A program made the translations under genes and the position numbers. A stretch of DNA of 64,000 bases from a virus. The notes below the pieces were generated by a model. The model made no database searches. It worked only from the letters and a program-made list of their open reading frames with translations, and was not told the origin of the DNA. The stretch covers positions 1 to 64,000 of the IMG/VR virus record IMGVR_UViG_3300033997_000035. One strand, written 5' to 3'. Positions within the stretch are counted from its first letter, which is position 1, and each line of letters begins with the position of its first letter. Below, in pieces: positions 2,216 through 55,700 of the stretch.

Positions 2216-2710
2216 ATGTTTATGGTGTTGCCTATAGAAAATTGGGCAATCCTATATAAGTTGTTCATGGTGATGACCGCAGTGTTTCACCCGAATGTCC
2301 AGATACGTAAGTTTTGTATCTGGTTTTCTGCCAGTTGGGTGGTAACGGGATTTACCAAGGCATATTATCTTGATGGTGGTAGTTGGTTCATGATGCAAAC
2401 AGTTCATGAGTTGATTACCATCCTCTTGGTAATTTCCTTCCTAAGCACCATGAAATTAACAAAGGTTATTATCTTAACACAGGCAATATTCTTTGTTGGG
2501 TTGAATACCCTGCAATGGCAGACACTTACGGATTGGTTTATGCCGCCAGATAGATACATTTGGTGGAATATGGTAGGTTTTGAACTTATATTATTTAGTC
2601 TGTGGGGGAGGCATGAAGTGCTTCTGTCAATCAAGAAGCATTGGACATTTGAGAATGTTACTATGGTGTATATCATCACCTTAATTATCCTGCTTGCAGG
2701 GAACTACTAA
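2216..2710 (+). CDS. integral membrane protein (4-5 TM segments)
   Basis: Hydrophobic stretches throughout the 164-aa ORF; tightly packed after the upstream stop. Confidence 0.6.
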   Translation: MFMVLPIENWAILYKLFMVMTAVFHPNVQIRKFCIWFSASWVVTGFTKAYYLDGGSWFMMQTVHELITILLVISFLSTMKLTKVIILTQAIFFVGLNTLQWQTLTDWFMPPDRYIWWNMVGFELILFSLWGRHEVLLSIKKHWTFENVTMVYIITLIILLAGNY

Positions 2711-2721
2711 AAGGAAACAAT

Positions 2722-3240
2722 ATGAAATACTTGATTATAACAGCTCTCCTGTTATGTAGCTTTTCATCCTCAGCTAATTATGTGCTTGAGACTATAGATA
2801 TTGTATCTAAAGATGAAATCTGTGGTGACAGGGTTAAAGTTGGTGATACAATCACTGTTCTAAGTAATGGTGGTGAGTTAAAGGAGGCACACTTAGCTGA
2901 TAAATGTATTCGTGATAAGAAAATTAAGCTTGTTATAATGAAGGCATTATCAGCAGCCAGTTACCTATCCCTATTCAGTGATGACGTGTGTCTATTATCC
3001 AGTAGTGATATTGGAACGCATACACCATACTTAGACCCTAGGAATGTCAAGGTGGATGAAACTCGGGATATTCTTAGGGCGGTATTTATGACACTAGTAG
3101 ATGATGCTAAGATTGAAGCTAAACATTCGTTACAATACGTTGGGTTCATGTTCTTGATTCCATCTACAGAGATGGGCTCTATACCACATGAGATGTTTAT
3201 TGAGATACTTGGTAACAAATACAAAGGAGTGTGCAAATGA
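2722..3240 (+). CDS. secreted/periplasmic hypothetical protein
   Basis: N-terminal signal peptide MKYLIITALLLCSFSSSA; AGGAAA RBS. Confidence 0.6.
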   Translation: MKYLIITALLLCSFSSSANYVLETIDIVSKDEICGDRVKVGDTITVLSNGGELKEAHLADKCIRDKKIKLVIMKALSAASYLSLFSDDVCLLSSSDIGTHTPYLDPRNVKVDETRDILRAVFMTLVDDAKIEAKHSLQYVGFMFLIPSTEMGSIPHEMFIEILGNKYKGVCK

Positions 3241-3569
3241 GTTTATTAGTATACAACTCTCACACAGACTTATGTGCACGATATAAGGAGTTTGACATCA
3301 CAGAGTTGATTACAGACTCCACACCTCCTAAATTTGAAGGGGATGTATCGTTCATACTAGATACTTGTGTGAGATTGAAAGGGTTGAATAAGATTCACTC
3401 TGATAGGTATCGCAGCACTAAAGTGATTGACTTATCTTTAGGTAATGATATAGTGTTCTCACAGTATGACGCTGAGGGATATATTATTGTGACTAAATCT
3501 GTGCACTCGGATACAGTAGATGTTTTATTGAAGCGTTATAGTGTGCATGGTGTGTTGGTGGAGGTGTAA
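3237..3569 (+). CDS. hypothetical protein
   Basis: ATG 7 nt after AGGAG (3225-3229), overlaps the upstream stop (ATGA). Confidence 0.55.
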   Translation: MSLLVYNSHTDLCARYKEFDITELITDSTPPKFEGDVSFILDTCVRLKGLNKIHSDRYRSTKVIDLSLGNDIVFSQYDAEGYIIVTKSVHSDTVDVLLKRYSVHGVLVEV

Positions 3570-3571
3570 TC

Positions 3572-3775
3572 GTGGAAGAAAGAGTAATGATGATTAGCCA
3601 CAATAAAATTCTCAACGAGGAGAAGACATCTGGCCCACACGTTAAGCGTAAAATTGACAAGTGGGTTCAGAGACAAAGGTCTGAGTCTGCCCTCGGATAC
3701 ATAACGTGGAGCACACGTCCTCTCACACCAGAGGAAGAATTGTTACCAACCGCTAGTTATATTTTAGGAGATTGA
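3572..3775 (+). CDS. hypothetical protein
   Basis: GTG start 6 nt after GGAGG; 67-aa ORF. Confidence 0.45.
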   Translation: MEERVMMISHNKILNEEKTSGPHVKRKIDKWVQRQRSESALGYITWSTRPLTPEEELLPTASYILGD

Positions 3776-10892: not shown

Positions 10893-12650
10893 GTAAAGAG
10901 GGTTTATGAGTTCAATTTCTAAAGCTAGAATCCTCTCTAACACACCCTCCATTTAAACACCCTAGGAAGCTCTATAATGGGCTTCCACTCTACCCTATAC
11001 AAACACACTGCCAATCTATTATCCCCTCTCCTGATGCTTCCTATGAGCTTTAAACAACTATCTAACACATGGGTTAACCTCTAGTTTTATTTTAATTACC
11101 TCTCTAAACCAACATTTCTTATTATTACCCATATTTCACCTCAATTCCTTCCTTAGTGTTGTATAATAAAATACACTGTTCATAATATCAACAACGTGTT
11201 GTACTGTATCGTATCCACAATACAAACATCGCAATAGTGTATTATTGTATTGATACACTACCGTACATAATTGATATGTAAACCAATTCTTTTATATAAA
11301 CATTTTACTTTATATTATAGTTGCCCTAGCAACGCCCTTCTAAGTTTACTCCCAAAACTACCCCACCCCCGCCATAACGGGAAATAAAACATACCCCCTT
11401 TCCTGCAATTTAGCAGGAGAATAATATCATGTGGCATGGTTACATGCAGGATATCAATTTAAAGCTCCATAGAGCTATGCTAATAGACGTTTGCACCAGA
11501 TGTGGTGCGATGGTATTACATTGTCAGAAACATTCATCCTAGTGTGATATAGAGCGTTTGGTGAAGGGATATAAATTTTAGTGATGGTGTAATATTTATC
11601 CCTTCGGGATGGAATTAATATGTCGTCACTTTGTGACGAATTTATACATTTTCGATAGGAATAACACCCCCACCCCCAATTTTTGGGGTGAATATTGATA
11701 CCCCTGTTCCATAGGAACGAGATTGAATTAATGTGGGATATTACTGTCGCTACGTCTGAGGTATTAAGCAAGGCTGCTGCCAGCCTGTCTGATATTCTCT
11801 ATCTTGGTGTAATATCAAGGCCATCGGCCTAAGCCCTCCAATCCCTTGCTGTGCCTGAATTGGCACCAATAACCACACCTTTCATCTTAGATGAGAACCA
11901 TTATCATCTAACCGTTTTCTATACACTCGTATAACCTGATTTAAATAAGAATAATTCTTATTAGTGCCGTGTGCAGGCACAAACATATTACTATTCGATA
12001 ACGATAATCGTTATCACTTAGATTACTATTCAATACTGAATTTATGGTGTAATGATAATGATTATTATTAGTGTTATTATTTAATGTTGTGTCGAGTGAC
12101 GACACGTTAGGATATAAAATGGCTTGCATTGTGCAAGCAAGGCGAAGAGGGAAAAGATTGTTAAGCATTCCTTCGGCATACTTAACAATTCCCCACACTT
12201 ATCACTTCTCTCAACATTATCTAATCTATACGCAACATGCGTATGAAATTTAATCCTATATACCTACGGTATAACTAAGCATTCGTCCATCAGCTTACCA
12301 ACTTTACCCCACACTATTACTCTATGATGCTATGCATCAAACTATTCAATTCATACGCATGATGTGTATAACAATATAACCTTGCATACAATGTATGCCA
12401 TTACTCACTATCGTCTGACATTCTACTCATCACTGAACAATTACCTTATAAGATGCACTCGCATCTAAACAATAATCACTATCATTTGCATTTTGCAAAT
12501 AACATTAGAATTTTGTCATGTTATGACATAGATGGATATAATTTAAAGTTGGCATAGTGCTTGCTAGTGATTAGATTGTTGTGTGATGTGTATTATTTAA
12601 TAGTTGACAATAGTATAAAAGTGTGCCCTTGTTTTATTAGTTTATACAGC

Positions 12651-12728
12651 GACAAAATGTCGTATCGAGCATAATTAAGCAAATCAATAACTTAGTCATT
12701 TCTCGATATGACAAATTGTCGTATTGAG
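12651..12728. promoter_or_regulatory. iteron/operator pair GACAAAWTGTCGTATYGAG
   Basis: Two copies (12651-12669 and 12710-12728, 17/19 identical), 59 bp apart. The second overlaps the -35 of the RHH gene promoter. Confidence 0.5.
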
Positions 12729-12753
12729 TGAGATCAAGAGTTTATGGTAAAAT
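12724..12753 (+). promoter_or_regulatory. promoter TTGAGT-N18-TGgTAAAAT (extended -10)
   Basis: -35 at 12724-12729, -10 at 12748-12753 with TG at 12745-12746. Confidence 0.5.
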
Positions 12754-12800
12754 AGCATATAAACGATAATAGTTATCATTTACTTACAAAGGGCTTTAGG

Positions 12801-19197: not shown

Positions 19198-19677
19198 TTA
19201 AAAATATTTTTCAAGGTGATCGCGGCAATATTGGTTAAAGCTGTGTTCGCAGTCTATAACGTGTTTAACACCGTCAACAGTGATGTGATAGGCTTTCTTG
19301 CGTAGGTCGAACCGTTCGCACAGGCGATCAATTAAAACGCTGTGGTCAGCCTTTGACGGCTCCCAGTCATTATAAAAGTATAGCTTAGCTGTGACAGGTA
19401 ATGCTTCATAATCAAATCGATGATCTGTATTGATATTGATCCCACGTTTGAGGCATTCAGCGGCTAGGGAGTCGTGGCGATTGTGTAGCCATTGCAATTT
19501 ATCTAAAAAGAATAACTCATGACCTGTGCCCATGCGGAAGGTAGCAGGGATGCGTGATTTGTCCAGCTTTGTTTTACCTGAGATGATCTTGTTTGGGATG
19601 CGTAAAAGCTCACGTGTTTCAGCGATCAACCATTCATTAGTGAGGTCTAATGGGTCTATTGTATTGATACGTGTCAT
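19198..19677 (-). CDS. denV: pyrimidine-dimer DNA glycosylase / AP lyase (T4 endonuclease V family)
   Basis: MTRIN..L.NEWLIAETRELLRIP...FRMGTGHELFF.DKL.WL..R...LAAECLKRG.NI aligns along its length with T4 DenV as I recall it. Confidence 0.9.
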   Translation of the reverse strand: MTRINTIDPLDLTNEWLIAETRELLRIPNKIISGKTKLDKSRIPATFRMGTGHELFFLDKLQWLHNRHDSLAAECLKRGININTDHRFDYEALPVTAKLYFYNDWEPSKADHSVLIDRLCERFDLRKKAYHITVDGVKHVIDCEHSFNQYCRDHLEKYF

Positions 19678-19762
19678 AATGTAAAACCTGTATAGTTGAA
19701 TTGCAGCAAGCCTACATTGTGTAAGAGGAAAATGTCAACAAAATAATTTAGTTTAAAATAGA

Positions 19763-19791
19763 TTGACAATGCGAGGAAGGGGGACTATTAT
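19763..19791 (+). promoter_or_regulatory. promoter TTGACA-N17-TATTAT
   Basis: -35 at 19763-19768, -10 at 19786-19791; drives 19836..20036. Confidence 0.6.
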
Positions 19792-19835: not shown

Positions 19836-20036
19836 ATGGAACAACACGAAGTTAGAGACGAAAACGGGAAGTTAATATTCAAGCTTGACCATACAGTATT
19901 ATTAAACATTGCCGAAAAGTTAGAAAAGAAGTGGCAAGGTAATAAACTTATTATGACTAGCGATCAGGTGTTAGATACTAATTTAGGTAGACTTTATTTG
20001 TGGGAAGGTTATACCATTAAAGTGAGCGTAAGATAA
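19836..20036 (+). CDS. hypothetical protein
   Basis: 66-aa ORF with AAGGCGG RBS; a rightward island inside the leftward early region. Confidence 0.5.
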   Translation: MEQHEVRDENGKLIFKLDHTVLLNIAEKLEKKWQGNKLIMTSDQVLDTNLGRLYLWEGYTIKVSVR

Positions 20037-20050
20037 TCCACAATCCCCGC

Positions 20051-20079
20051 TTGCATTCTATTGTGGGCGGGTTTATAAT
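20051..20079 (+). promoter_or_regulatory. near-consensus promoter TTGCAT-N17-TATAAT
   Basis: -35 at 20051-20056, -10 at 20074-20079; no ORF follows. Confidence 0.7.
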
Positions 20080-20085
20080 GCTTTT

Positions 20086-20222
20086 AAAGCGGTAGCCTGA
20101 GTTAATCGCGCCTCGAATGGCAAAGGGTTGGTAGCTATAAAGTGTGGGCGATTGTTAGCGGATGCTAATGAGAATTATTATCAATTGTAAGTAATAAAAA
20201 TCCCGCACGATTGCGGGATTTT
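20086..20222 (+). ncRNA. candidate sRNA A (about 135 nt), bounded by a promoter and a terminator
   Basis: Consensus promoter, only a 5-codon ORF, and a strong terminator. Nt 20167-20182 are perfectly complementary to candidate sRNA B. Confidence 0.5.
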
Positions 20223-20225
20223 GTT
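20198..20225. terminator. bidirectional intrinsic terminator
   Basis: AAATCCCGCA-CGAT-TGCGGGATTT with T-runs on both strands. Confidence 0.75.
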
Positions 20226-20233
20226 TGTGTTAG

Positions 20234-20497
20234 TTATTTAAGTAATACACCTTTTAACTTACTTTTGCCTTGAATCCCTACTGTATACGGCCACAAAGTG
20301 ATATAATGGCGATCCTTAAACATACTGCAAGTATATGCTATTTTATAGCAATATGATTCAGGCGCTAACGGGTTTTCACTATGATCAATTATGTGTACCG
20401 TTGTTCGCTTTTCGTCCCTTGGGAATCCTGACACCTTACGATCAAATATTTCTAAAACTTCCGACCTTGTTAATGGCTGTGTTTTCATTTTATACAC
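20234..20497 (-). CDS. hypothetical protein
   Basis: 87-aa ORF. Confidence 0.55.
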   Translation of the reverse strand: MYKMKTQPLTRSEVLEIFDRKVSGFPRDEKRTTVHIIDHSENPLAPESYCYKIAYTCSMFKDRHYITLWPYTVGIQGKSKLKGVLLK

Positions 20498-20779
20498 CTA
20501 CTTGAATTTTGAAGACTTGTAAAACTGTTTAGTTGTTGGATTAATCCGTTTTATACTGCGCCAATCCTCTAAATACTGGTCAGAGTTTAAATTATTACTA
20601 TGACAATATTCTTTGATAACATCGCTCAAATTGGCCTTGTTTATATTGTGGTATACTTGCTGATATTTATCGGAGTTTGGATCTGCTATACCCCAATTAT
20701 ATCTATCATAGCAATCGGGATCGTTGTGTGGAGCGTTTGGATATTTCAGTCTAAATTCTGACCACAACATTTTATACAC
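20498..20779 (-). CDS. hypothetical protein
   Basis: 93-aa ORF abutting its neighbours. Confidence 0.55.
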   Translation of the reverse strand: MYKMLWSEFRLKYPNAPHNDPDCYDRYNWGIADPNSDKYQQVYHNINKANLSDVIKEYCHSNNLNSDQYLEDWRSIKRINPTTKQFYKSSKFK

Positions 20780-20957
20780 CTTTAAAGTATTTAGTTAATT
20801 CAACCTTGCCAGCAATATGATCAGGTATATCCTGACACAAGTCAATAACTTTTTGCTGATCTGTTACATTCATTTGTTTATATTCTGCAATTGCTTGGTG
20901 AATAGTGCCACCTTGCCAGCCTTTAACCTTGCAGATAACTTCTAACACTGTTTTCAT
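20772..20957 (-). CDS. hypothetical protein
   Basis: 61-aa ORF with overlapping start and stop. Confidence 0.5.
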   Translation of the reverse strand: MKTVLEVICKVKGWQGGTIHQAIAEYKQMNVTDQQKVIDLCQDIPDHIAGKVELTKYFKGV

Positions 20958-21361
20958 CCCTTAACCTCATATAAGCTATTGATATTAAATAGAGCCGTTA
21001 CGCCTTGAGGCATTCCGTACGGTGTGAATGCATAGCAGAAATGATCGGCTTTAGCCTTGAGATATTTTCCAGCCTCTTTTTGCTCATAACCAAAAATGAT
21101 CCCTTTCGTTTCCTCCCAATAGTTTAATTGGTCACACTCACAAGGTGTTAGTTTGTGGATCACTTTGCCGACCATATGAGAAAACGATAAAATTTCAAGG
21201 TGATTGAATCCGTGCTTGTCTAGCGTCCAAACGGTACAAGGCGCAAGATTGAGGCGCAAATCCGCCACCATACGCAATAAATTTTTGTTGTCTTCACTTT
21301 GCCATTGGCGATCTTTAAACGTGCTGATATCACGGTTTAATGACTCTAAATTGATATTCAT
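20954..21361 (-). CDS. hypothetical protein
   Basis: 135-aa ORF. Confidence 0.55.
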   Translation of the reverse strand: MNINLESLNRDISTFKDRQWQSEDNKNLLRMVADLRLNLAPCTVWTLDKHGFNHLEILSFSHMVGKVIHKLTPCECDQLNYWEETKGIIFGYEQKEAGKYLKAKADHFCYAFTPYGMPQGVTALFNINSLYEVKG

Positions 21362-21363
21362 GT

Positions 21364-21540
21364 TTAAGCCTCTTCTACTGATAAAATTTTAAAGCTGATC
21401 AAGTTTTTATTACTTTCTAGATATTCGGTAAAACCTTCTAAAGCTTTGTATACTGTATCGGCCTTATATTCCCTTTGCAAGAAATTTTCCCCGTTATTAT
21501 AGATATTTTTAACAGCGACCTTGCATATAAAAGTTTTCAT
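21364..21540 (-). CDS. hypothetical small protein (58 aa)
   Basis: MKTFICKVAVKNIYNNGENF...; below the ORF-track cutoff; first gene of the leftward unit. Confidence 0.4.
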   Translation of the reverse strand: MKTFICKVAVKNIYNNGENFLQREYKADTVYKALEGFTEYLESNKNLISFKILSVEEA

Positions 21541-21633
21541 TTGTTGCGCCTCTTTCTATAAGATACAATAAATTCTACACGATAGCGGCCAATTGTCAAC
21601 AACAAAATATTTTAAATTATTTAAGATTATCGC

Positions 21634-21662
21634 TTGCAATTGGGAGGCGCTTTCCTTATACT
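21634..21662 (+). promoter_or_regulatory. promoter TTGCAA-N17-TATACT
   Basis: -35 at 21634-21639, -10 at 21657-21662; no credible ORF follows. Confidence 0.65.
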
Positions 21663-21668
21663 GTTATC

Positions 21669-21820
21669 AACAAATCAGGAAAGCTTCAGCGGTTAGCCAG
21701 TTATCGCGAGTCTTATGAGTTAAGACCAAGGTTTTGCAGGAACCATCCGATCCCGTCATTCAGCAAACGATAATAATTCTCATTCAGCTTTGTGAATCAT
21801 TATTATTTAGATTCACTTTT
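21669..21820 (+). ncRNA. candidate sRNA B (about 150 nt)
   Basis: Promoter plus GTGAATC-N11-GATTCAC-TTTT terminator (21792-21820). Its 5' motif GCGGTTAGCCAGTTATCGCG is shared with sRNA A, and 21769-21784 is complementary to sRNA A. Confidence 0.45.
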
Positions 21821-22062
21821 GCACAATATAATTTCGAGAGTGGAAGTACTTGAATTTCAAACACTTTTCGCTTATACGAAAAACGTAATAGGTACTCCTA
21901 GAATTTCAAATGAATTTGTGAATTATCAATTTTCAATCTATCCCTTTTTATTTTACATTTCAATTAGTTACAAATAATTTTAGCTTTAGTTCTTATTTGC
22001 TAAATTACTAGTGCACTGTTGTTAGTTTCTTAGTATACCACACATCCTTGTGTGCTTTAACC

Positions 22063-22920
22063 CTACATAACTACCCCGTCTTTACCTCGCTCCCCAATAT
22101 ATGGGAAGTTATAAACATTAAAATCTGACGGGTAGTTTTCCCGTAAATAAGTATCATAAGCCTGTGCAGCCAAGATTGCAGTAGGGTAGTATTCTGTAAA
22201 TCGAAAATGTCCATCCCTGAATACCCTAGTCCTGTACTGGTTATTGACGCAGTTTTTCCTGTAATCCACACCAACATACCCAGTAGTGTTGTCAATTGAC
22301 CTACGACAATTTCTAGAGTTTTCTATATGAGATGCCCGTCTCAGGTTGGATACTCTGTTATCTAGTTTATTACCATCGACATGGTCGCCTACGACATCAG
22401 AAGTTGGTAAGTCCTGTATTCCTAAAATCACCCTATGTAATAGGATATGATTATGTGTAGGGTAGTAACATAAATTATTTACATCTAGTCTACGCAAATT
22501 ATCCTTAGACATCGTCGCCTTTATATAATCGTTATGGTCTTTTATCCATAGTATTTTTGAAAGTTCTGGGTAAATGTCTATATCTACGAGCGTGCTATCG
22601 ACAACCTTATATCCTATTTTACTGGTTCCTGATAAAACAGGAATACGTTTAACCATTTTATCATCTGTCGAAGAATCCCATTCGAACATTATTTCATCAA
22701 AGGTCTTACCTATCATACCACCACTTTGCTGCATTAGTTTTACACACCCATAACACAGACCCGCCTTGGCGTATAGTAATCCTAATGTATCTCTGGCATA
22801 TTGGGCACCTTTGTTTGTAAATCTTGGTACGATGTGATCCCACTTACAAACCTTTCCAGTAAAGAAGTAATATAATCCTTTATTCTGAGCATCTTCTCTT
22901 TTTATTACTTTAAATCTCAT
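22063..22920 (-). CDS. free-standing HNH homing endonuclease with AP2 DNA-binding domain
   Basis: HRVILG...GDHVDGNKLDNRVSNLRRASHIENSRN (HNH) followed by TGYVGVDYRK...YRTRVFRDG...AAQAYD (AP2-like). Confidence 0.8.
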   Translation of the reverse strand: MRFKVIKREDAQNKGLYYFFTGKVCKWDHIVPRFTNKGAQYARDTLGLLYAKAGLCYGCVKLMQQSGGMIGKTFDEIMFEWDSSTDDKMVKRIPVLSGTSKIGYKVVDSTLVDIDIYPELSKILWIKDHNDYIKATMSKDNLRRLDVNNLCYYPTHNHILLHRVILGIQDLPTSDVVGDHVDGNKLDNRVSNLRRASHIENSRNCRRSIDNTTGYVGVDYRKNCVNNQYRTRVFRDGHFRFTEYYPTAILAAQAYDTYLRENYPSDFNVYNFPYIGERGKDGVVM

Positions 22921-32018: not shown

Positions 32019-32299
32019 CAACAAAAACAATATCCTTCGCCAAAGATACATTTGATGTAATTGCCACTGTGCAACACACTCGTCCGTATGCAAAATGGAT
32101 TGCTGATAGTGATAATGATTATTATGGAGAGTATGAAATTCTTGACATGATGGTGTTCAATGGCGGAATTCCTGTTGACAAACACAGTGTATCATGGGAA
32201 GATGTGATTCGAGAGTTTGAATTTGTTGTGGAGACACAGCAGGTGGGGTATCAAGAATACTTGGAAGATGACTATTGGGAGGATGAAGATTATGATTAG
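32015..32299 (+). CDS. hypothetical acidic protein
   Basis: 94-aa ORF with ATGA overlap. Confidence 0.55.
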   Translation: MTTKTISFAKDTFDVIATVQHTRPYAKWIADSDNDYYGEYEILDMMVFNGGIPVDKHSVSWEDVIREFEFVVETQQVGYQEYLEDDYWEDEDYD

Positions 32300-40486: not shown

Positions 40487-41587
40487 ATGTTATTATCACA
40501 TAAGGTCGAATTACGACCTTCTAAAGAACAAGAACAATATCTATTACAACTGTGTGGAACCACAAGGCACTTGTGGAATCAACTACTTCACTACTTTAGT
40601 AGTGGTGATGTTAAATGGAATAAGAAGACCGCTAGGGAAAAGATGTACTCTTTAAGGGAAGAATTCCCTTGGTACAATGACTACTCCGCTAACATCGTTA
40701 GATGTTCTATAGATAATCTTGATAATGCTTATAAGAGGTTCTTTAAAACTAAGAAAGGTTACCCTAAGTTTAAGAGTAAACATCAGAAGCGAAGCTTCAA
40801 TATCTATGAATCTCGGAAGTTTTCTGTAGTAGGTAGGGATTTTAGAATAGAGAAATTCAATAATTCTAAGAAATCTAAACCTATTAAGATGAGGGAGAAG
40901 CTACGCTTTGATGGCAAGGTAAAACAAGCTAATGTCTCTTTCCAGAATGGAAAGTGGTTTTGCTCTTTCTTAGTAGAGGTGGAAAACTACAAAAATATCT
41001 CTGGACAACACGGAAGTGTTGGTATTGATTTAGGTATCAAAGATTTAGCTACACTATCTGATGGAACTACGTTCCAAAAGAGTAACAAACTAACTCTAAG
41101 TCTGTATAAATTAGTTAAACTTCAAAAGAAGTTATCTAAGAAAAAGAAAGGTTCTAATCGTTATGCGAAAGCCAAGCTTTCGATTAGTAAGCTTCATTTT
41201 AGAATACGTAAACAACGTGAAGCGTTGCTTCACAATGTAAGCCATACAATTACATCTAAGTATAAAACTATCTGCTTAGAGGATCTGTCTGTTTCGTCTA
41301 TGACGAAGGGTAAGAATAAGAATTTGAATAGAATGATCTTAGATGTAGGTATGTATGGGTTTCGTAGGCAACTGGAGTATAAATCTTTCTTAAGAGGTGT
41401 TGACATCTACTTCGTGGATAGATATTATCCATCAAGTAAGATTCACAACGAATGTGGATTTAAGAACGATAACCTTAAACTAGGAGAATCTTCTTGGAAG
41501 TGTAATAACTGCGGTCAACTTGTTGACCGAGATTTAAATGCCTCTAAGAATATCCTTAAAGAAGGTTTGCGTTTAGCAAACAAGTAA
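40487..41587 (+). CDS. tnpB: TnpB (IS200/IS605-IS607 family OrfB, RNA-guided RuvC nuclease)
   Basis: N-terminal HKVELRPSKEQEQ. RuvC residues VGIDLGIKD, ICLEDLS and VDRDLNASKNI. C-terminal zinc-finger region. Confidence 0.9.
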   Translation: MLLSHKVELRPSKEQEQYLLQLCGTTRHLWNQLLHYFSSGDVKWNKKTAREKMYSLREEFPWYNDYSANIVRCSIDNLDNAYKRFFKTKKGYPKFKSKHQKRSFNIYESRKFSVVGRDFRIEKFNNSKKSKPIKMREKLRFDGKVKQANVSFQNGKWFCSFLVEVENYKNISGQHGSVGIDLGIKDLATLSDGTTFQKSNKLTLSLYKLVKLQKKLSKKKKGSNRYAKAKLSISKLHFRIRKQREALLHNVSHTITSKYKTICLEDLSVSSMTKGKNKNLNRMILDVGMYGFRRQLEYKSFLRGVDIYFVDRYYPSSKIHNECGFKNDNLKLGESSWKCNNCGQLVDRDLNASKNILKEGLRLANK

Positions 41588-43219: not shown

Positions 43220-43480
43220 GGATGTCGTCAATAAACTTTGTGAATTGCTGGGAAATTAGACGATAAATTCATCGTATTGTCTGACAATCAGCAGGGAAGG
43301 TTACACTATGTAGTGTAACACCCTCCAGAGACTAACCTGATAAGGTGTAGGGGAGATTTCCTCGAAGCGCAAAAGTTGACTTCTGTCAGCCATGATATAG
43401 TCCACCACACGTTAGTGTGATCCCGTTTTAAGATGATATTCACTACTATCAATTACTAAATTGTATATGGTGTAATATGA

Positions 43481-52752: not shown

Positions 52753-55700
52753 TAGTTTTGCACCATTTTAATCTCTGATTGAATTGCGTCTTTGATTGAT
52801 GGATTCTGTGCAACAATCTCACCAACTTTCTGACCATCAATATTGACTGTCCCAGTAATGGATAGTTTGTTACCCATGAATTGACCAGCGTTAATAGCAC
52901 TACCCATACCACTTGCAACAAACCCACCAAGGTTACCTTTGCTGAACATATTCATCAATGACATCATCATACTGTCACCAACACTCATGTTTGAAGTATT
53001 GGCAGCACCAAGCATGTGTTGTGCTACGTTGGCACCAGTGTTATTGGCCGCACCTTTACGTGGATCATATAGCAAGCCAATCTTATTCTTACTGAATAGC
53101 AAGTTATCCAATTCCTCAGCCCAGAAAGCCACTTCCTTGATTAAGTCTAGAAGTATTACGAACTGACCTACCAGAGGGAGAGCCTTTAGTGCCTTGCTGC
53201 CGAACAGTTTATAGATGTAGAGTGCAGGGCCAGCCATTGCAACTAAGAAAGCGTAACTGTCTCCTAACCCCTTAGAGATACTATTCAATACCTCGCCTAC
53301 AGATACTAGCATAGGTGTTACCCATTTAACACCATCAGCAATTAAGCTGAACACTGACCCAATTATCTTACCAAGTGCTTCCCACAGTGGCTTGAGCTTA
53401 ACCACTGACTCAGCCATAGCATTGAATAACTCTGTCAAACCCTCACCGAAACCAGACTTGAATATAATATTACCAGCTTCTTGGAATGAGAACATCAATC
53501 TGTTCATTGCAACACGGTTAGATAACATGGCCTTATCCAGACCTCCGTTAGCACGTGCAGCCGCAGACATGTTACGAGCAAAGTGTGGTAATACCTTTTC
53601 AGATATTAGACCACCTTTCATCTGCAAGTCCATCATAGACTTTACAGTGCCGTCTACCGTAAGACCAGCATCCTGAGCAGACTTCGCCATGATTTGTCAT
53701 GTAGTTTAATGTGTTCGTTAAACACACCCATTTAATAGCTATATATTTTCATATATAGGTCGGACTATATCATCACCATTTAAGGTGCTAAACTTTTCGA
53801 TGCCACTTGGTCACCTACACCCTACGGGTTAGTCTCTGGACGAGGGTTGTACCTCGCTGCTGATCACCATATTAAAGGCTTCCAGCAATTAATTCAGTTA
53901 TTCGATATACATTTCTGTATAAAGCCACACAAATTTATGGCATTTGGCAAAACTTCCATTATTGTTTTATACAACCATCGTTAGTGGCTGTCCACCCTTT
54001 CAGGTGGTATCGGACTATATCTTCACATTTAGTATGTGATTACCTTTTCGACACACTTGTGCCTACACTATAAATAGCTAGTCTCTGGAGGATTCCCACC
54101 TGTTAGATGGAGTCATTTTATAATCCTTAGAAATCCATGTCCAAGTTGCACCACATCTTAAGTGTAGCAGTGCATCCTTAGTTATGTTGGTGTGCTTCCT
54201 AATATATTCATTATTCTTCCCATCTTGAATCATTTCACAAACTTTACGAATAAACTGCTCATCATAATCTGAGCCTCGTAGGTGTTTATGAGGTTGACCT
54301 TCAATGGAGTGCAAATTATTTTCGAGACTTGTAACCCATTCTAAATTAGAAACGTGGTCATTTGTCCTATCGAAATCTTTGTGGTTAATTACTAAGCCTT
54401 CTTCGTACGTATCTTGAAGATATGCTAGTCCAACCATTCTTGCACAACGTCGGTGGTAATATTTTCTATTTTTATAAAGATTAACCACCCTGTAACCATC
54501 TATGTTAAGTTGGCTTTTTATTGGATGACCTTTACTGTTAAAAATATTACCGCTCTCGTCTATAGTATAATTTGGAAACTCTTCTATGACTCTCATGTTA
54601 CCTCCTGTTAAGAAGGCAGTGGATATTCCCTGCGAATTACCATCATGCCTTGATATAAGTTTACCATCTTACATCATTTTGAACAAGCATTAAGGCTTCT
54701 CGCAATTAGATAATTTTATAATGGGCAAAGTTTACCCATTTGGAGCTTTAATTCCTCTAGTTAAATCAATGACTTACGTTACCAAGTCACTACATCAAAG
54801 TCTTTAGATGTAACCTACATTACTGTAGGGCTAGACCATATCATAACCTCTCAAGAGGTTTTCACTGTTTCGGCTCTACTTAGAACCTACACCTTATCAG
54901 GTTGGTCTTTGAAGGTTGCCACAAAGTGACCTTCCCTGCTGATTGTCCGTTTAAGGATGTCCCAGCAATTAAATGAATTATTGATAACTGTCACCAGTTA
55001 AAAGGCCAAGGGTTTAGCCGATACGACTCCTTTTGACATCCAATTTGTTAAGTAAATCAATGACTTACTCCGTGTTAAACACGCTCTATGTTACCATAGA
55101 AGTTCAGACTATATCTTAACCTTCAACTGAATGGTCAGGTCATTTACGCTTCGAGGTATAAACCTCTACATCCTTACGGATTAGTCTTTACACGTTCCTC
55201 TTTAGAGGCTTCGCTAGGTATTATCCTGCTAGGACGTCCACCTAATTCATAAATTTAATTATTCGTTATATTTCTATAACGCCAAACAATGATTTATTTG
55301 TTGTAAAGCGTTTACCTGTGGACTATATCTTAATCCCGAAGGATTCCTTATTTTCGAGGAGATTCCCCTACATTCTTACGAATTAGTCTCTGAAGGTGGT
55401 TACCTAGTAACCGTCCATGCTGATTGTCTAATTAGATTTCCCAGCAATTAACAAGGTTTTTCATTAATATTACTATTAAAGGAGCCATAAACGTTTAGCT
55501 CTAGTACTCTCCGCACTACTCAACCCCAGCAAAGTACTCATTTCTGAAACGGCACTGAAGGCTGCCTTCGTATCTTCCAGACTCATCTTCCCTCTGGCCG
55601 ATAACATCTTGGCAAAGTTCTTACCACTGTCTGCCAAACTCAACCCTAGTCGATACGACTCATCCCTGACAAATTGAAAGTTACTACCTGCTTCCTGAGC

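Follow-up and report, generated by a model that had tools for sequence, protein, structure and literature searches.

In the sea, iron is a growth-limiting nutrient, and it is required by phage enzymes, ribonucleotide reductase among them. Several described systems link small RNAs (sRNAs) or phage DNA to host iron regulation. RyhB of the enterobacteria and Vibrio and PrrF of Pseudomonas are sRNAs repressed by Fur, a regulator which Vibrio possess and for which the Escherichia coli consensus site is GATAATGATAATCATTATC. In phages, stx1 of Shiga-toxin prophages is under the control of Fur and tox of corynephage beta is under that of DtxR; to our knowledge, iron-repressor control of phage DNA has so far been known mainly for such toxin genes of temperate phages. 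Prophages of enterohemorrhagic E. coli (EHEC) also encode the anti-sRNAs, or sponges, AgvB and AsxR. Here we describe a 64,000-nt stretch of viral DNA (IMG/VR record IMGVR_UViG_3300033997_000035, positions 1 to 64,000; the window) in which two short noncoding units on the plus strand, A and B, carry 16-nt cores that are complementary to each other. A first-pass annotation of the sequence had read the pair as an sRNA with its sponge or as an RNA antitoxin-like circuit. Our analysis points to another reading, which we consider likely: that A and B are duplicated phage sRNA-like modules with embedded operators for the host Fur protein.

The complementary cores match the Vibrio Fur box

The Fur box of Vibrio cholerae is a 19-bp palindrome, AATGATAATNATTATCATT (PMC7641913). 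The core at 20167-20182 (AATGAGAATTATTATC) was verified to be the exact reverse complement of 21769-21784, as had been claimed, and both cores were found to lie within matches to this palindrome, with two mismatches at 20167-20185 and two at 21766-21784. The pairing, originally put at 19 bp with one bulge, was extended by a repeat finder to 21 nt at 90% complementarity (20167-20187 with 21764-21784). Seven sites with three or fewer mismatches to the Fur box were observed in the window, compared with 0.16 expected, and none of 100 shuffles reached seven. At two or fewer mismatches, the density was 6.25 per 100 kb, compared with 0.05 to 0.09 in 2.0 Mb of unrelated viral loci, a 70- to 100-fold difference. 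Six of the seven sites were in noncoding DNA, the exception being one at 32108 inside an open reading frame (ORF). Perfect or one-mismatch sites were present in relatives of the phage, namely, AATGATAATAATTATCATT in locus L078, where it adjoins a copy of the 16-nt core, and GATGATAATCATTATCATT in locus L003. A half-site variant, AATGAGAAT, occurs in the listed Gram-negative iron box GATAATGAGAATCATTATT (PMC10665472). A search for a Fur homologue among the proteins encoded in the window found none. As judged from these matches, the 16-nt cores are two oppositely oriented copies of the predicted palindromic site of the host Fur protein.

The chance probability of 1e-5 given for the complementarity in the first-pass annotation holds for two prespecified regions and not for the whole search space. 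Random sequences with the same dinucleotide makeup are expected to contain 2.9 exact 16-mer inverted pairs per 64 kb on average, which favors a coincidence of two AT-rich 16-mers, and a second Fur-like pair with an exact common 16-mer was present in the window (12053 and 32110). Set against this count, both arms are conserved in relatives and the motif is enriched about 40-fold or more over expectation, and coincidence is barely credible as an explanation; because both arms are Fur boxes, the repeat was not attributed to chance. The Fur-like site at 32108-32126 (AGTGATAATGATTATTATG) lies in a 94-aa ORF, where it encodes DSDNDYYG, and has an exact 16-mer in common with the noncoding box at 12051. 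This site is probably a coding coincidence.

Four of the Fur-box matches were in a stretch of about 1.9 kb (10900-12800) that is poor in ORFs and contains many GC-rich hairpins. Its function may be regulatory, or it may serve as an origin, in either case under the control of iron. The box at 12762-12780 covers roughly positions +2 to +20 relative to a promoter, TTGAGT-18-TAAAAT. Downstream of this promoter are a 68-aa ORF and a second ORF of 189 aa, for which a weak HTH_36 match was found.

A noncoding module conserved in lytic Vibrio myophages

The source of the window is a lytic-type myophage, with genes for a tail sheath, baseplate wedge protein, DNA polymerase, primase-helicase, and ligase. 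A nucleotide search of GenBank phages with the 2.5-kb region, in near and distant modes, gave no match. Small neighboring proteins tied the region to Vibrio phages P018-4, qdvp001, PWH3a-P1, helene 12B3, 1.161.O, and 1.170.O. Closer relatives, the metagenome-assembly loci L002-L004 and L352-L357, were reached via these small proteins, and GenBank relatives were later retrieved using the P018-4 unit as a query. Exact-pattern scans of IMG/VR with the A motif, the 16-mer core, the B leader, and the GGTTGGTAGCTATA block returned nothing or nearly all chance matches, the informative results being L078 and a qdvp001 contig only. A protein scan of IMG/VR with the 135-aa ORF detected no relative, and an alignment scan with the 58-aa ORF detected one locus in IMG/VR and one in JGI metagenomes. 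The host of every identified relative was Vibrio.

Comparison of these sequences indicated that A and B are diverged paralogues of one noncoding module of a lytic Vibrio myophage clade. The module begins with a promoter, GCTTGCA(A/T)-N17-TATAAT/TATACT, placed over the terminator hairpin of an upstream small ORF. This is followed by a unit of about 90 to 110 nt, the 5' domain of which consists of two small hairpins (H1 and H2), with a conserved first loop, AGCCnGUUAU, and then by at least one Fur box on the 3' side. The promoter type, the leader CAACAAATCAGGAAA, the motif AGCG..AGCC.GTTAT..CGC, and the blocks GGTTGGTAGCTATA and CCGATCCCGTCATT all recurred in distant Vibrio phages. At least 38 GenBank records of Vibrio myophages contained the unit, at 84 to 93% identity, and some annotators had entered it as a "hypothetical protein." Its synteny was also conserved: a UV-repair gene, divergently a small variable ORF, and then the unit.

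A profile hidden Markov model (HMM) built from seven GenBank Vibrio-phage units only gave exactly two matches in the 64-kb window, which were B at 21657-21767 (E = 1.6e-5), with a match that takes in the leader as well as H1 and the CCGATCCCGTCATT block, and A (E = 3.4e-4). A covariance model was then considered, in which a hand-set two-hairpin structure (H1 GCGN...NCGC, H2, and the GGTTGGTAGCTATA block) was used and the window sequences were excluded. This model found A at 20088-20141 (29.5 bits; E = 2.5e-5) as well as orthologues of A. In the covariance alignment, which was fitted to the model and held only 12 related sequences, 93.5% of cells were paired, compared with 76.6% in shuffles; five of the eight pairs changed on both sides, and slid controls reached at most 47%. 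These compensatory changes in the two hairpins lend moderate, model-based support to an RNA structure. In unit B, H2 carries a change from G-C to A-U in L353, and the GGTTGGTAGCTATA block is absent. A hairpin-finder test of H2 was only suggestive, random 24-mers forming such hairpins 10 to 50% of the time, and alignment of nine units with MAFFT followed by RNAalifold yielded no structure, the hairpin arms being misaligned.

The promoter sequences named in the first-pass annotation, TTGCAT-N17-TATAAT at 20051-20079 and TTGCAA-N17-TATACT at 21634-21662, were present. The description of promoter A as a consensus promoter was not upheld, as TTGCAT matches TTGACA at three of six positions and the promoter scanner did not list it; this promoter is credible only because GCTTGCA[AT]-N17-TATAAT/TATACT recurs in relatives. 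The 5' motif said to be shared by A and B was located at 20089-20110 and 21689-21708, respectively. A strong terminator follows A, as proposed, and was found at 20197-20222 in a bidirectional form. The hairpin proposed as the terminator of B (21792-21820) has a 7-bp AT-rich stem and an 11-nt loop, went undetected by the scanner, and is disrupted by two substitutions in L353, and it was not accepted as such. Unit A contains no plus-strand ORF of 25 aa or more, in agreement with its description as ORF free; for B that description needs qualifying, since short plus-strand ORFs exist, which begin upstream of promoter B or are without support.

The proposal of two noncoding plus-strand transcription units was therefore retained on the evidence of promoter type, HMM, and covariance model, well supported for A and moderately supported for B, with a convincing terminator missing from the latter. 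On these sequence criteria there is good support for unit A as an sRNA-like gene of about 140 nt, of which B would be a copy that has diverged further. Unit A would be transcribed as an RNA of that length ending at the 20197-20222 terminator. In phage 1.161.O the unit ends at a terminator of its own and is not accompanied by a Fur box, and for this reason the unit was regarded as a separable sRNA-like gene.

Searches of Rfam with A and B returned only subthreshold matches driven by the terminator, and searches with nine related loci returned none. No tRNAs were found. Homology to RyhB, a riboswitch, and a tRNA-like element were rejected on these grounds, with no Rfam score at the gathering threshold and no tRNA found. 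A scan of the window for complements of the conserved H1 loop or of the B leader found none. Literature searches for a phage RNA-like unit coupled to Fur boxes in lytic vibriophages found nothing, and this association of a new unit with Fur boxes appears to be undescribed.

Complementarity of A and B is generic to the palindrome

In the model of the first-pass annotation, A would be a trans-acting sRNA and B an anti-sRNA or an RNA antitoxin-like partner, the two annealing through the 16- to 19-nt core. The exact complementarity and its extension to 21 nt are in keeping with this model, as are the location of both cores in regions with conserved same-strand promoters and the unusual invariance of the exact 16-mer in relatives at both positions. 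A predicted local A:B duplex of -25.7 kcal/mol is also in its favor, the energies being computed on 30-nt segments. However, the core is a Fur-box palindrome, and any two transcripts containing a Fur box are hence complementary. Window A was predicted to pair with the unrelated Fur boxes at 12051 (-18.7 kcal/mol) and 12762 (-13.7 kcal/mol), and A of L353 was predicted to pair with box 1 of L353 B at -17.7 kcal/mol and with L353 box 2 at -23.3 kcal/mol. By these predicted energies, the complementarity of A to B is generic and not pair specific. A full-length duplexfold calculation of A against B was uninformative, a shuffled B giving the same score.

Relatives argue against selection for pairing at the core. 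In L353, the unit B box (GATAACTATTCTCAAC) differs from that of the window by four substitutions, the A core is unchanged, and compensation is absent, an outcome that the first-pass annotation had itself named as refuting its model. The A core is kept in L352, which has no unit B at the orthologous position. Among relatives, at least three unrelated types of sequence have replaced one another between promoter and box at the B position. The two cores also match different boxes of an F100-type multi-box array (see below), B is without a convincing terminator, and neither a toxin ORF nor a tandem repeat array was found. In view of the Fur palindrome, the generic pairing, and the lack of compensation in L353, the sponge or antitoxin circuit was not sustained, and we regard it as improbable. 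The A/B complementarity is probably a by-product of the palindrome and not a selected RNA-RNA interaction, because the box is near-palindromic and present once per copy, in opposite orientation.

A type I or type III toxin-antitoxin RNA was considered separately and rejected: no toxin family was found among the neighboring ORFs, and there were no ToxI-like repeats, the sole tandem match being a 9-nt unit repeated 2.1 times.

Fur boxes beside the unit in relatives

One to three Fur boxes were detected downstream of the unit in P018-4, qdvp001, VPMCC14, VnaP, IBT_VpB-34, F100, F88, and 1.187.O. The A core aligned to F100 box 1 and the B core to F100 box 2, and on this basis the two cores would derive from separate boxes of one multi-box array. 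A 10/12 promoter match, TTTACA-18-TATCAT, overlaps one Fur box (box 2) of P018-4, and in L003 and L354 the Fur box lies between TTGACA and TACAAA. The hexamers of the window that are homologous to these P018-4- and L003-type promoters are degenerate.

A noncoding stretch of about 130 nt was observed in L226 (1150-1300) and in the homologous regions of qdvp001, VnaP, VPMCC14, and 10AMN, with 87 to 93% conservation among P018-4-like phages. It lies downstream of a Fur-box-overlapped promoter, TTTAC(A/C)-18-TAT(C/T)AT. From this arrangement, the stretch is a candidate for a Fur-repressed small transcript starting near AGTTGAATGATT.

Several observations weigh against embedded Fur operators in duplicated sRNA-like modules. 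At A and B themselves, only weak 9/12 hexamer pairs overlap the boxes, and these are not conserved between clades; the boxes are about 80 to 115 nt downstream of the unit promoter, near the 3' end, which is an unusual position for an operator. On the RNA side, the covariance model did not recover B, the alignment behind the pair counts is small and model fitted, and the fold energies were no better than those of shuffles (z = -1.3 for A and -0.5 for B). The exact 16-mer is invariant at ten sites and eight loci (window A, window B, L002, L352, L353 [A], L003, L004, L354, L355, and L078) while the flanks vary. This invariance seems tighter than Fur binding alone would need and to favor some extra constraint. 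Finally, the consensus of the unit-adjacent sites is biased, these sites having been selected for resemblance to the Fur box.

In another explanation, the palindromes would be operators of a phage-encoded regulator that resemble the Fur box and have AATGAGAAT as the preferred half-site, with host Fur uninvolved. The tight conservation of the 16-mer is in its favor, as is the frequency of G at position 6/14 of the unit-adjacent sites, which was nearly that of the consensus T (17 versus 21). Many small phage ORFs of unassigned function are located nearby and could supply such a regulator. Against it, canonical Fur boxes with no or one mismatch and without the G occur several times in the window and in relatives, and an iron box with the G variant has itself been described (PMC10665472). 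No candidate DNA-binding protein specific to the palindrome was identified, and Vibrio, which have Fur, are the only known hosts of the clade. A phage-encoded regulator is accordingly thought unlikely, to about the same degree as the sponge.

The inverted repeats of 16 to 21 bp could also be recombination sites or terminal inverted repeats of a 1.6-kb cassette (20167-21784) with five small ORFs. The repeats do bound a gene cassette, relatives differ in the genes that lie between A and B, and a DNA invertase or recombinase gene adjoins the unit in GenBank relatives. The orientation was nevertheless the same in every relative examined, no recombinase is adjacent to A or B in the window, and the palindrome, besides matching the Fur box, also occurs at many places where it flanks no cassette. 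This explanation is highly improbable. An R-loop replication origin, in which a promoter is followed by an AT-rich unwinding element, was rejected as leaving the exact Fur-box match unexplained.

Organization of the A and B regions

The features of the two regions are listed in Table 1.

Table 1. Positions of features in and around units A and B and of Fur-box matches elsewhere in the window
Feature	Position(s)	Strand	Remarks
Fur-box matches	12000-12018, 12051-12069, 12468-12486, 12762-12780		ORF-poor region
denV	19198-19677		UV-repair gene
Promoter TTGACA-17-TATTAT	19763-19791	+	Strong sigma-70 type, 11/12 matches; predicted to drive short operon ending in unit A; divergent from denV promoter
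66-aa ORF	19836-20036	+	Upstream of unit A; variable, nonhomologous among relatives
GC-rich hairpin followed by T-run	20046-20071	+	Terminator-like for 66-aa ORF; overlaps promoter A
Promoter A, GCTTGCAT-N17-TATAAT	20049-20079	+	Clade-specific type; conserved in L002, L352, and L353
Unit A body	20086-20166	+	H1 within 20089-20110 (loop AGCCnGTTAAT); H2 GCC/GGC at 20110-20121; GGTTGGTAGCTATA block at 20127-20140
Predicted Fur box A, AATGAGAATTATTATCAAT	20167-20185		Two mismatches to AATGATAATNATTATCATT; includes 16-nt core; 16-mer invariant in L002, L352, and L353
Strong intrinsic terminator	20197-20222	Both strands listed	Ends unit A and convergent minus-strand operon; stem in predicted fold
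Promoter TTGACA-16-TAGAAT	21572-21599	-	11/12 matches; operon of 58-, 135-, 61-, 93-, and 87-aa ORFs; divergent from promoter B
Promoter B, GCTTGCAA-N17-TATACT	21632-21662	+	Conserved in L003, L353, 1.161.O, P018-4, and F100
Unit B body	21669-21765	+	Leader CAACAAATCAGGAAAG; H1 within 21689-21708; H2 GTCTTA/TAAGAC at 21710-21726; GGTT/AACC at 21730-21744; CCGATCCCGTCATT block at 21747-21760
Predicted Fur box B, AACGATAATAATTCTCATT	21766-21784		Two mismatches to Vibrio consensus; includes complementary core
Weak AT-rich hairpin	21792-21820	+	Not listed by terminator scanner; unconvincing as terminator
HNH endonuclease ORF	22063-22920		Downstream of unit B

The divergent-promoter region at 19736-19764 is a direct repeat (76%) of 21600-21628 upstream of B. 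The 66-aa ORF, for which the strong promoter at 19763-19791 serves as its own, had no match in PHROG or Pfam, and a small ORF was also found at its position in relatives. The layout of a hairpin over the promoter recurred, with other stem sequences, in L226 and L003 and, by eye, in further relatives. Unit A was 80% identical to its counterpart in L002.

The 16-mer of Fur box B was identical in L003, L004, L354, L355, and L078 and had diverged in L353. A promoter-like sequence on the minus strand, TTCACA-18-TATCGT (21796-21767), overlaps this box. In the region of L353 (4590-4930) that was compared with 21620-21662 of the window, two CTTGCAAT promoters flank a 71-aa ORF. From this resemblance, promoter B seems to have arisen by a deletion that fused two promoters of this kind, and the repeated -35 elements seem to act as recombination points. 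Sequences that replace that of the window at the unit B position were observed in L353 (4310-4420), L354 (4785-4900), and L003 (6142-6260); one such replacement is G rich (AAAGGTTACGAACTGGCAGCGAAAGCGGGGACGGGC...) and another contains a T-loop-like GGAGTTCGAAGG, and neither the G-rich nor the T-loop-like sequence had a match with Rfam or ARAGORN. Downstream of Fur box B, a perfect TATAAT (21827-21832) precedes an imperfect hairpin with a T-run behind it. The sequence as a whole (21827-21880) is very similar in L353 and could be a further very short transcription unit.

A TnpB gene (2405-3658) adjoins the unit B position in L352, at the place taken by the HNH endonuclease ORF in the window, and the spot next to unit B appears to be a hotspot for mobile nucleases. 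Elsewhere in the window, a TnpB/IS605 OrfB-like gene with OrfB_IS605 and Cas12f1-like TNB domains was found at 40487-41587 on the plus strand. On the minus strand, three Rfam group I introns (53740-53946, 54813-55025, and 55084-55301) lie within about 1.6 kb, with an HNH_3 endonuclease ORF (54078-54596) between them; this crowding suggests a multiply interrupted gene. Exact inverted matches of 19 and 18 nt to the intron at 54813-55025 were present at about 43283-43351 on the plus strand; the stretch is a candidate for a fourth intron, or part of one, below the Rfam gathering score.

Discussion

Under the reading that we favor, of duplicated sRNA-like modules with embedded operators, host Fur-Fe2+ would bind the predicted boxes on phage DNA and would make transcription through or from them iron dependent. 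Classical repression would be likely at the box at 12762 and at the promoter-overlapping boxes of the P018-4-like and L003-like phages. The boxes at A and B could be relic or roadblock operators or could contribute to Fur titration, and it is from sequence context that we infer a mode of Fur action there, be it as repressor, roadblock, or decoy. We give about even chances to the boxes acting as operators in iron-responsive repression and hold it possible, if unlikely, that they act as decoys that titrate Fur.

A broader and still less likely proposal is that this clade couples a structured sRNA family to Fur arrays that work as DNA decoys, as a transcribed seed, or as both, and in this way seizes the host iron response. 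As decoys, at least six to seven strong boxes per genome, multiplied by replication, would titrate Fur and derepress host iron uptake to the benefit of the phage. As a seed, the RNA copy of the palindrome would pair with the other phage unit and with host mRNAs of the iron regulon, through the Fur box in their 5' leaders.

If the boxes do bind Fur, a marine clade of lytic vibriophages would read or manipulate the iron status of its host via the host's own repressor. The promoter-unit module, with its wide occurrence in GenBank records and its absence from Rfam, is a candidate for a new family of phage sRNAs. For genome scanning, a more general point is that complementary intergenic cores can be two copies of a palindromic protein site, and operator motifs should be checked before RNA pairing is proposed.

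The locus can be compared with known systems on several counts. The phage sites resemble Fur boxes in their dyad symmetry, in their noncoding location, and in sequence, with two mismatches at the A and B cores and none or one at other sites of the window and its relatives; the box at 12762 and box 2 of P018-4 also have the classical position over a promoter or start. They differ from Fur boxes in being on the genome of a lytic phage and not in a host iron regulon, in the frequency of the AATGAGAAT half-site variant, and, for A and B, in lying at the 3' end of a short noncoding unit and not over its promoter. Similarity to RyhB and PrrF is seen in the physical coupling of a small noncoding unit to a Fur box and, in P018-4-like and L003-like phages, in the overlap of the box with a promoter that would drive a short noncoding transcript. 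Unlike these sRNAs, the unit is phage encoded and has no Rfam sequence or structure match, and the box in the window is downstream of the unit body, so that the unit is not obviously Fur repressed.

As with stx1 and tox, phage DNA appears to bear the operator of a host iron repressor, which would tie expression to host iron status. In those cases, however, a single operator lies over the promoter of a toxin gene of a temperate phage, whereas multiple boxes are found here, in a lytic myophage clade, beside noncoding units and in early or regulatory regions. Units A and B share with AgvB and AsxR the features of being phage encoded and short, of having their own promoter, and of being complementary to another RNA, but their complementarity is that of a protein-binding palindrome, is not specific to A and B, and is uncompensated in relatives.

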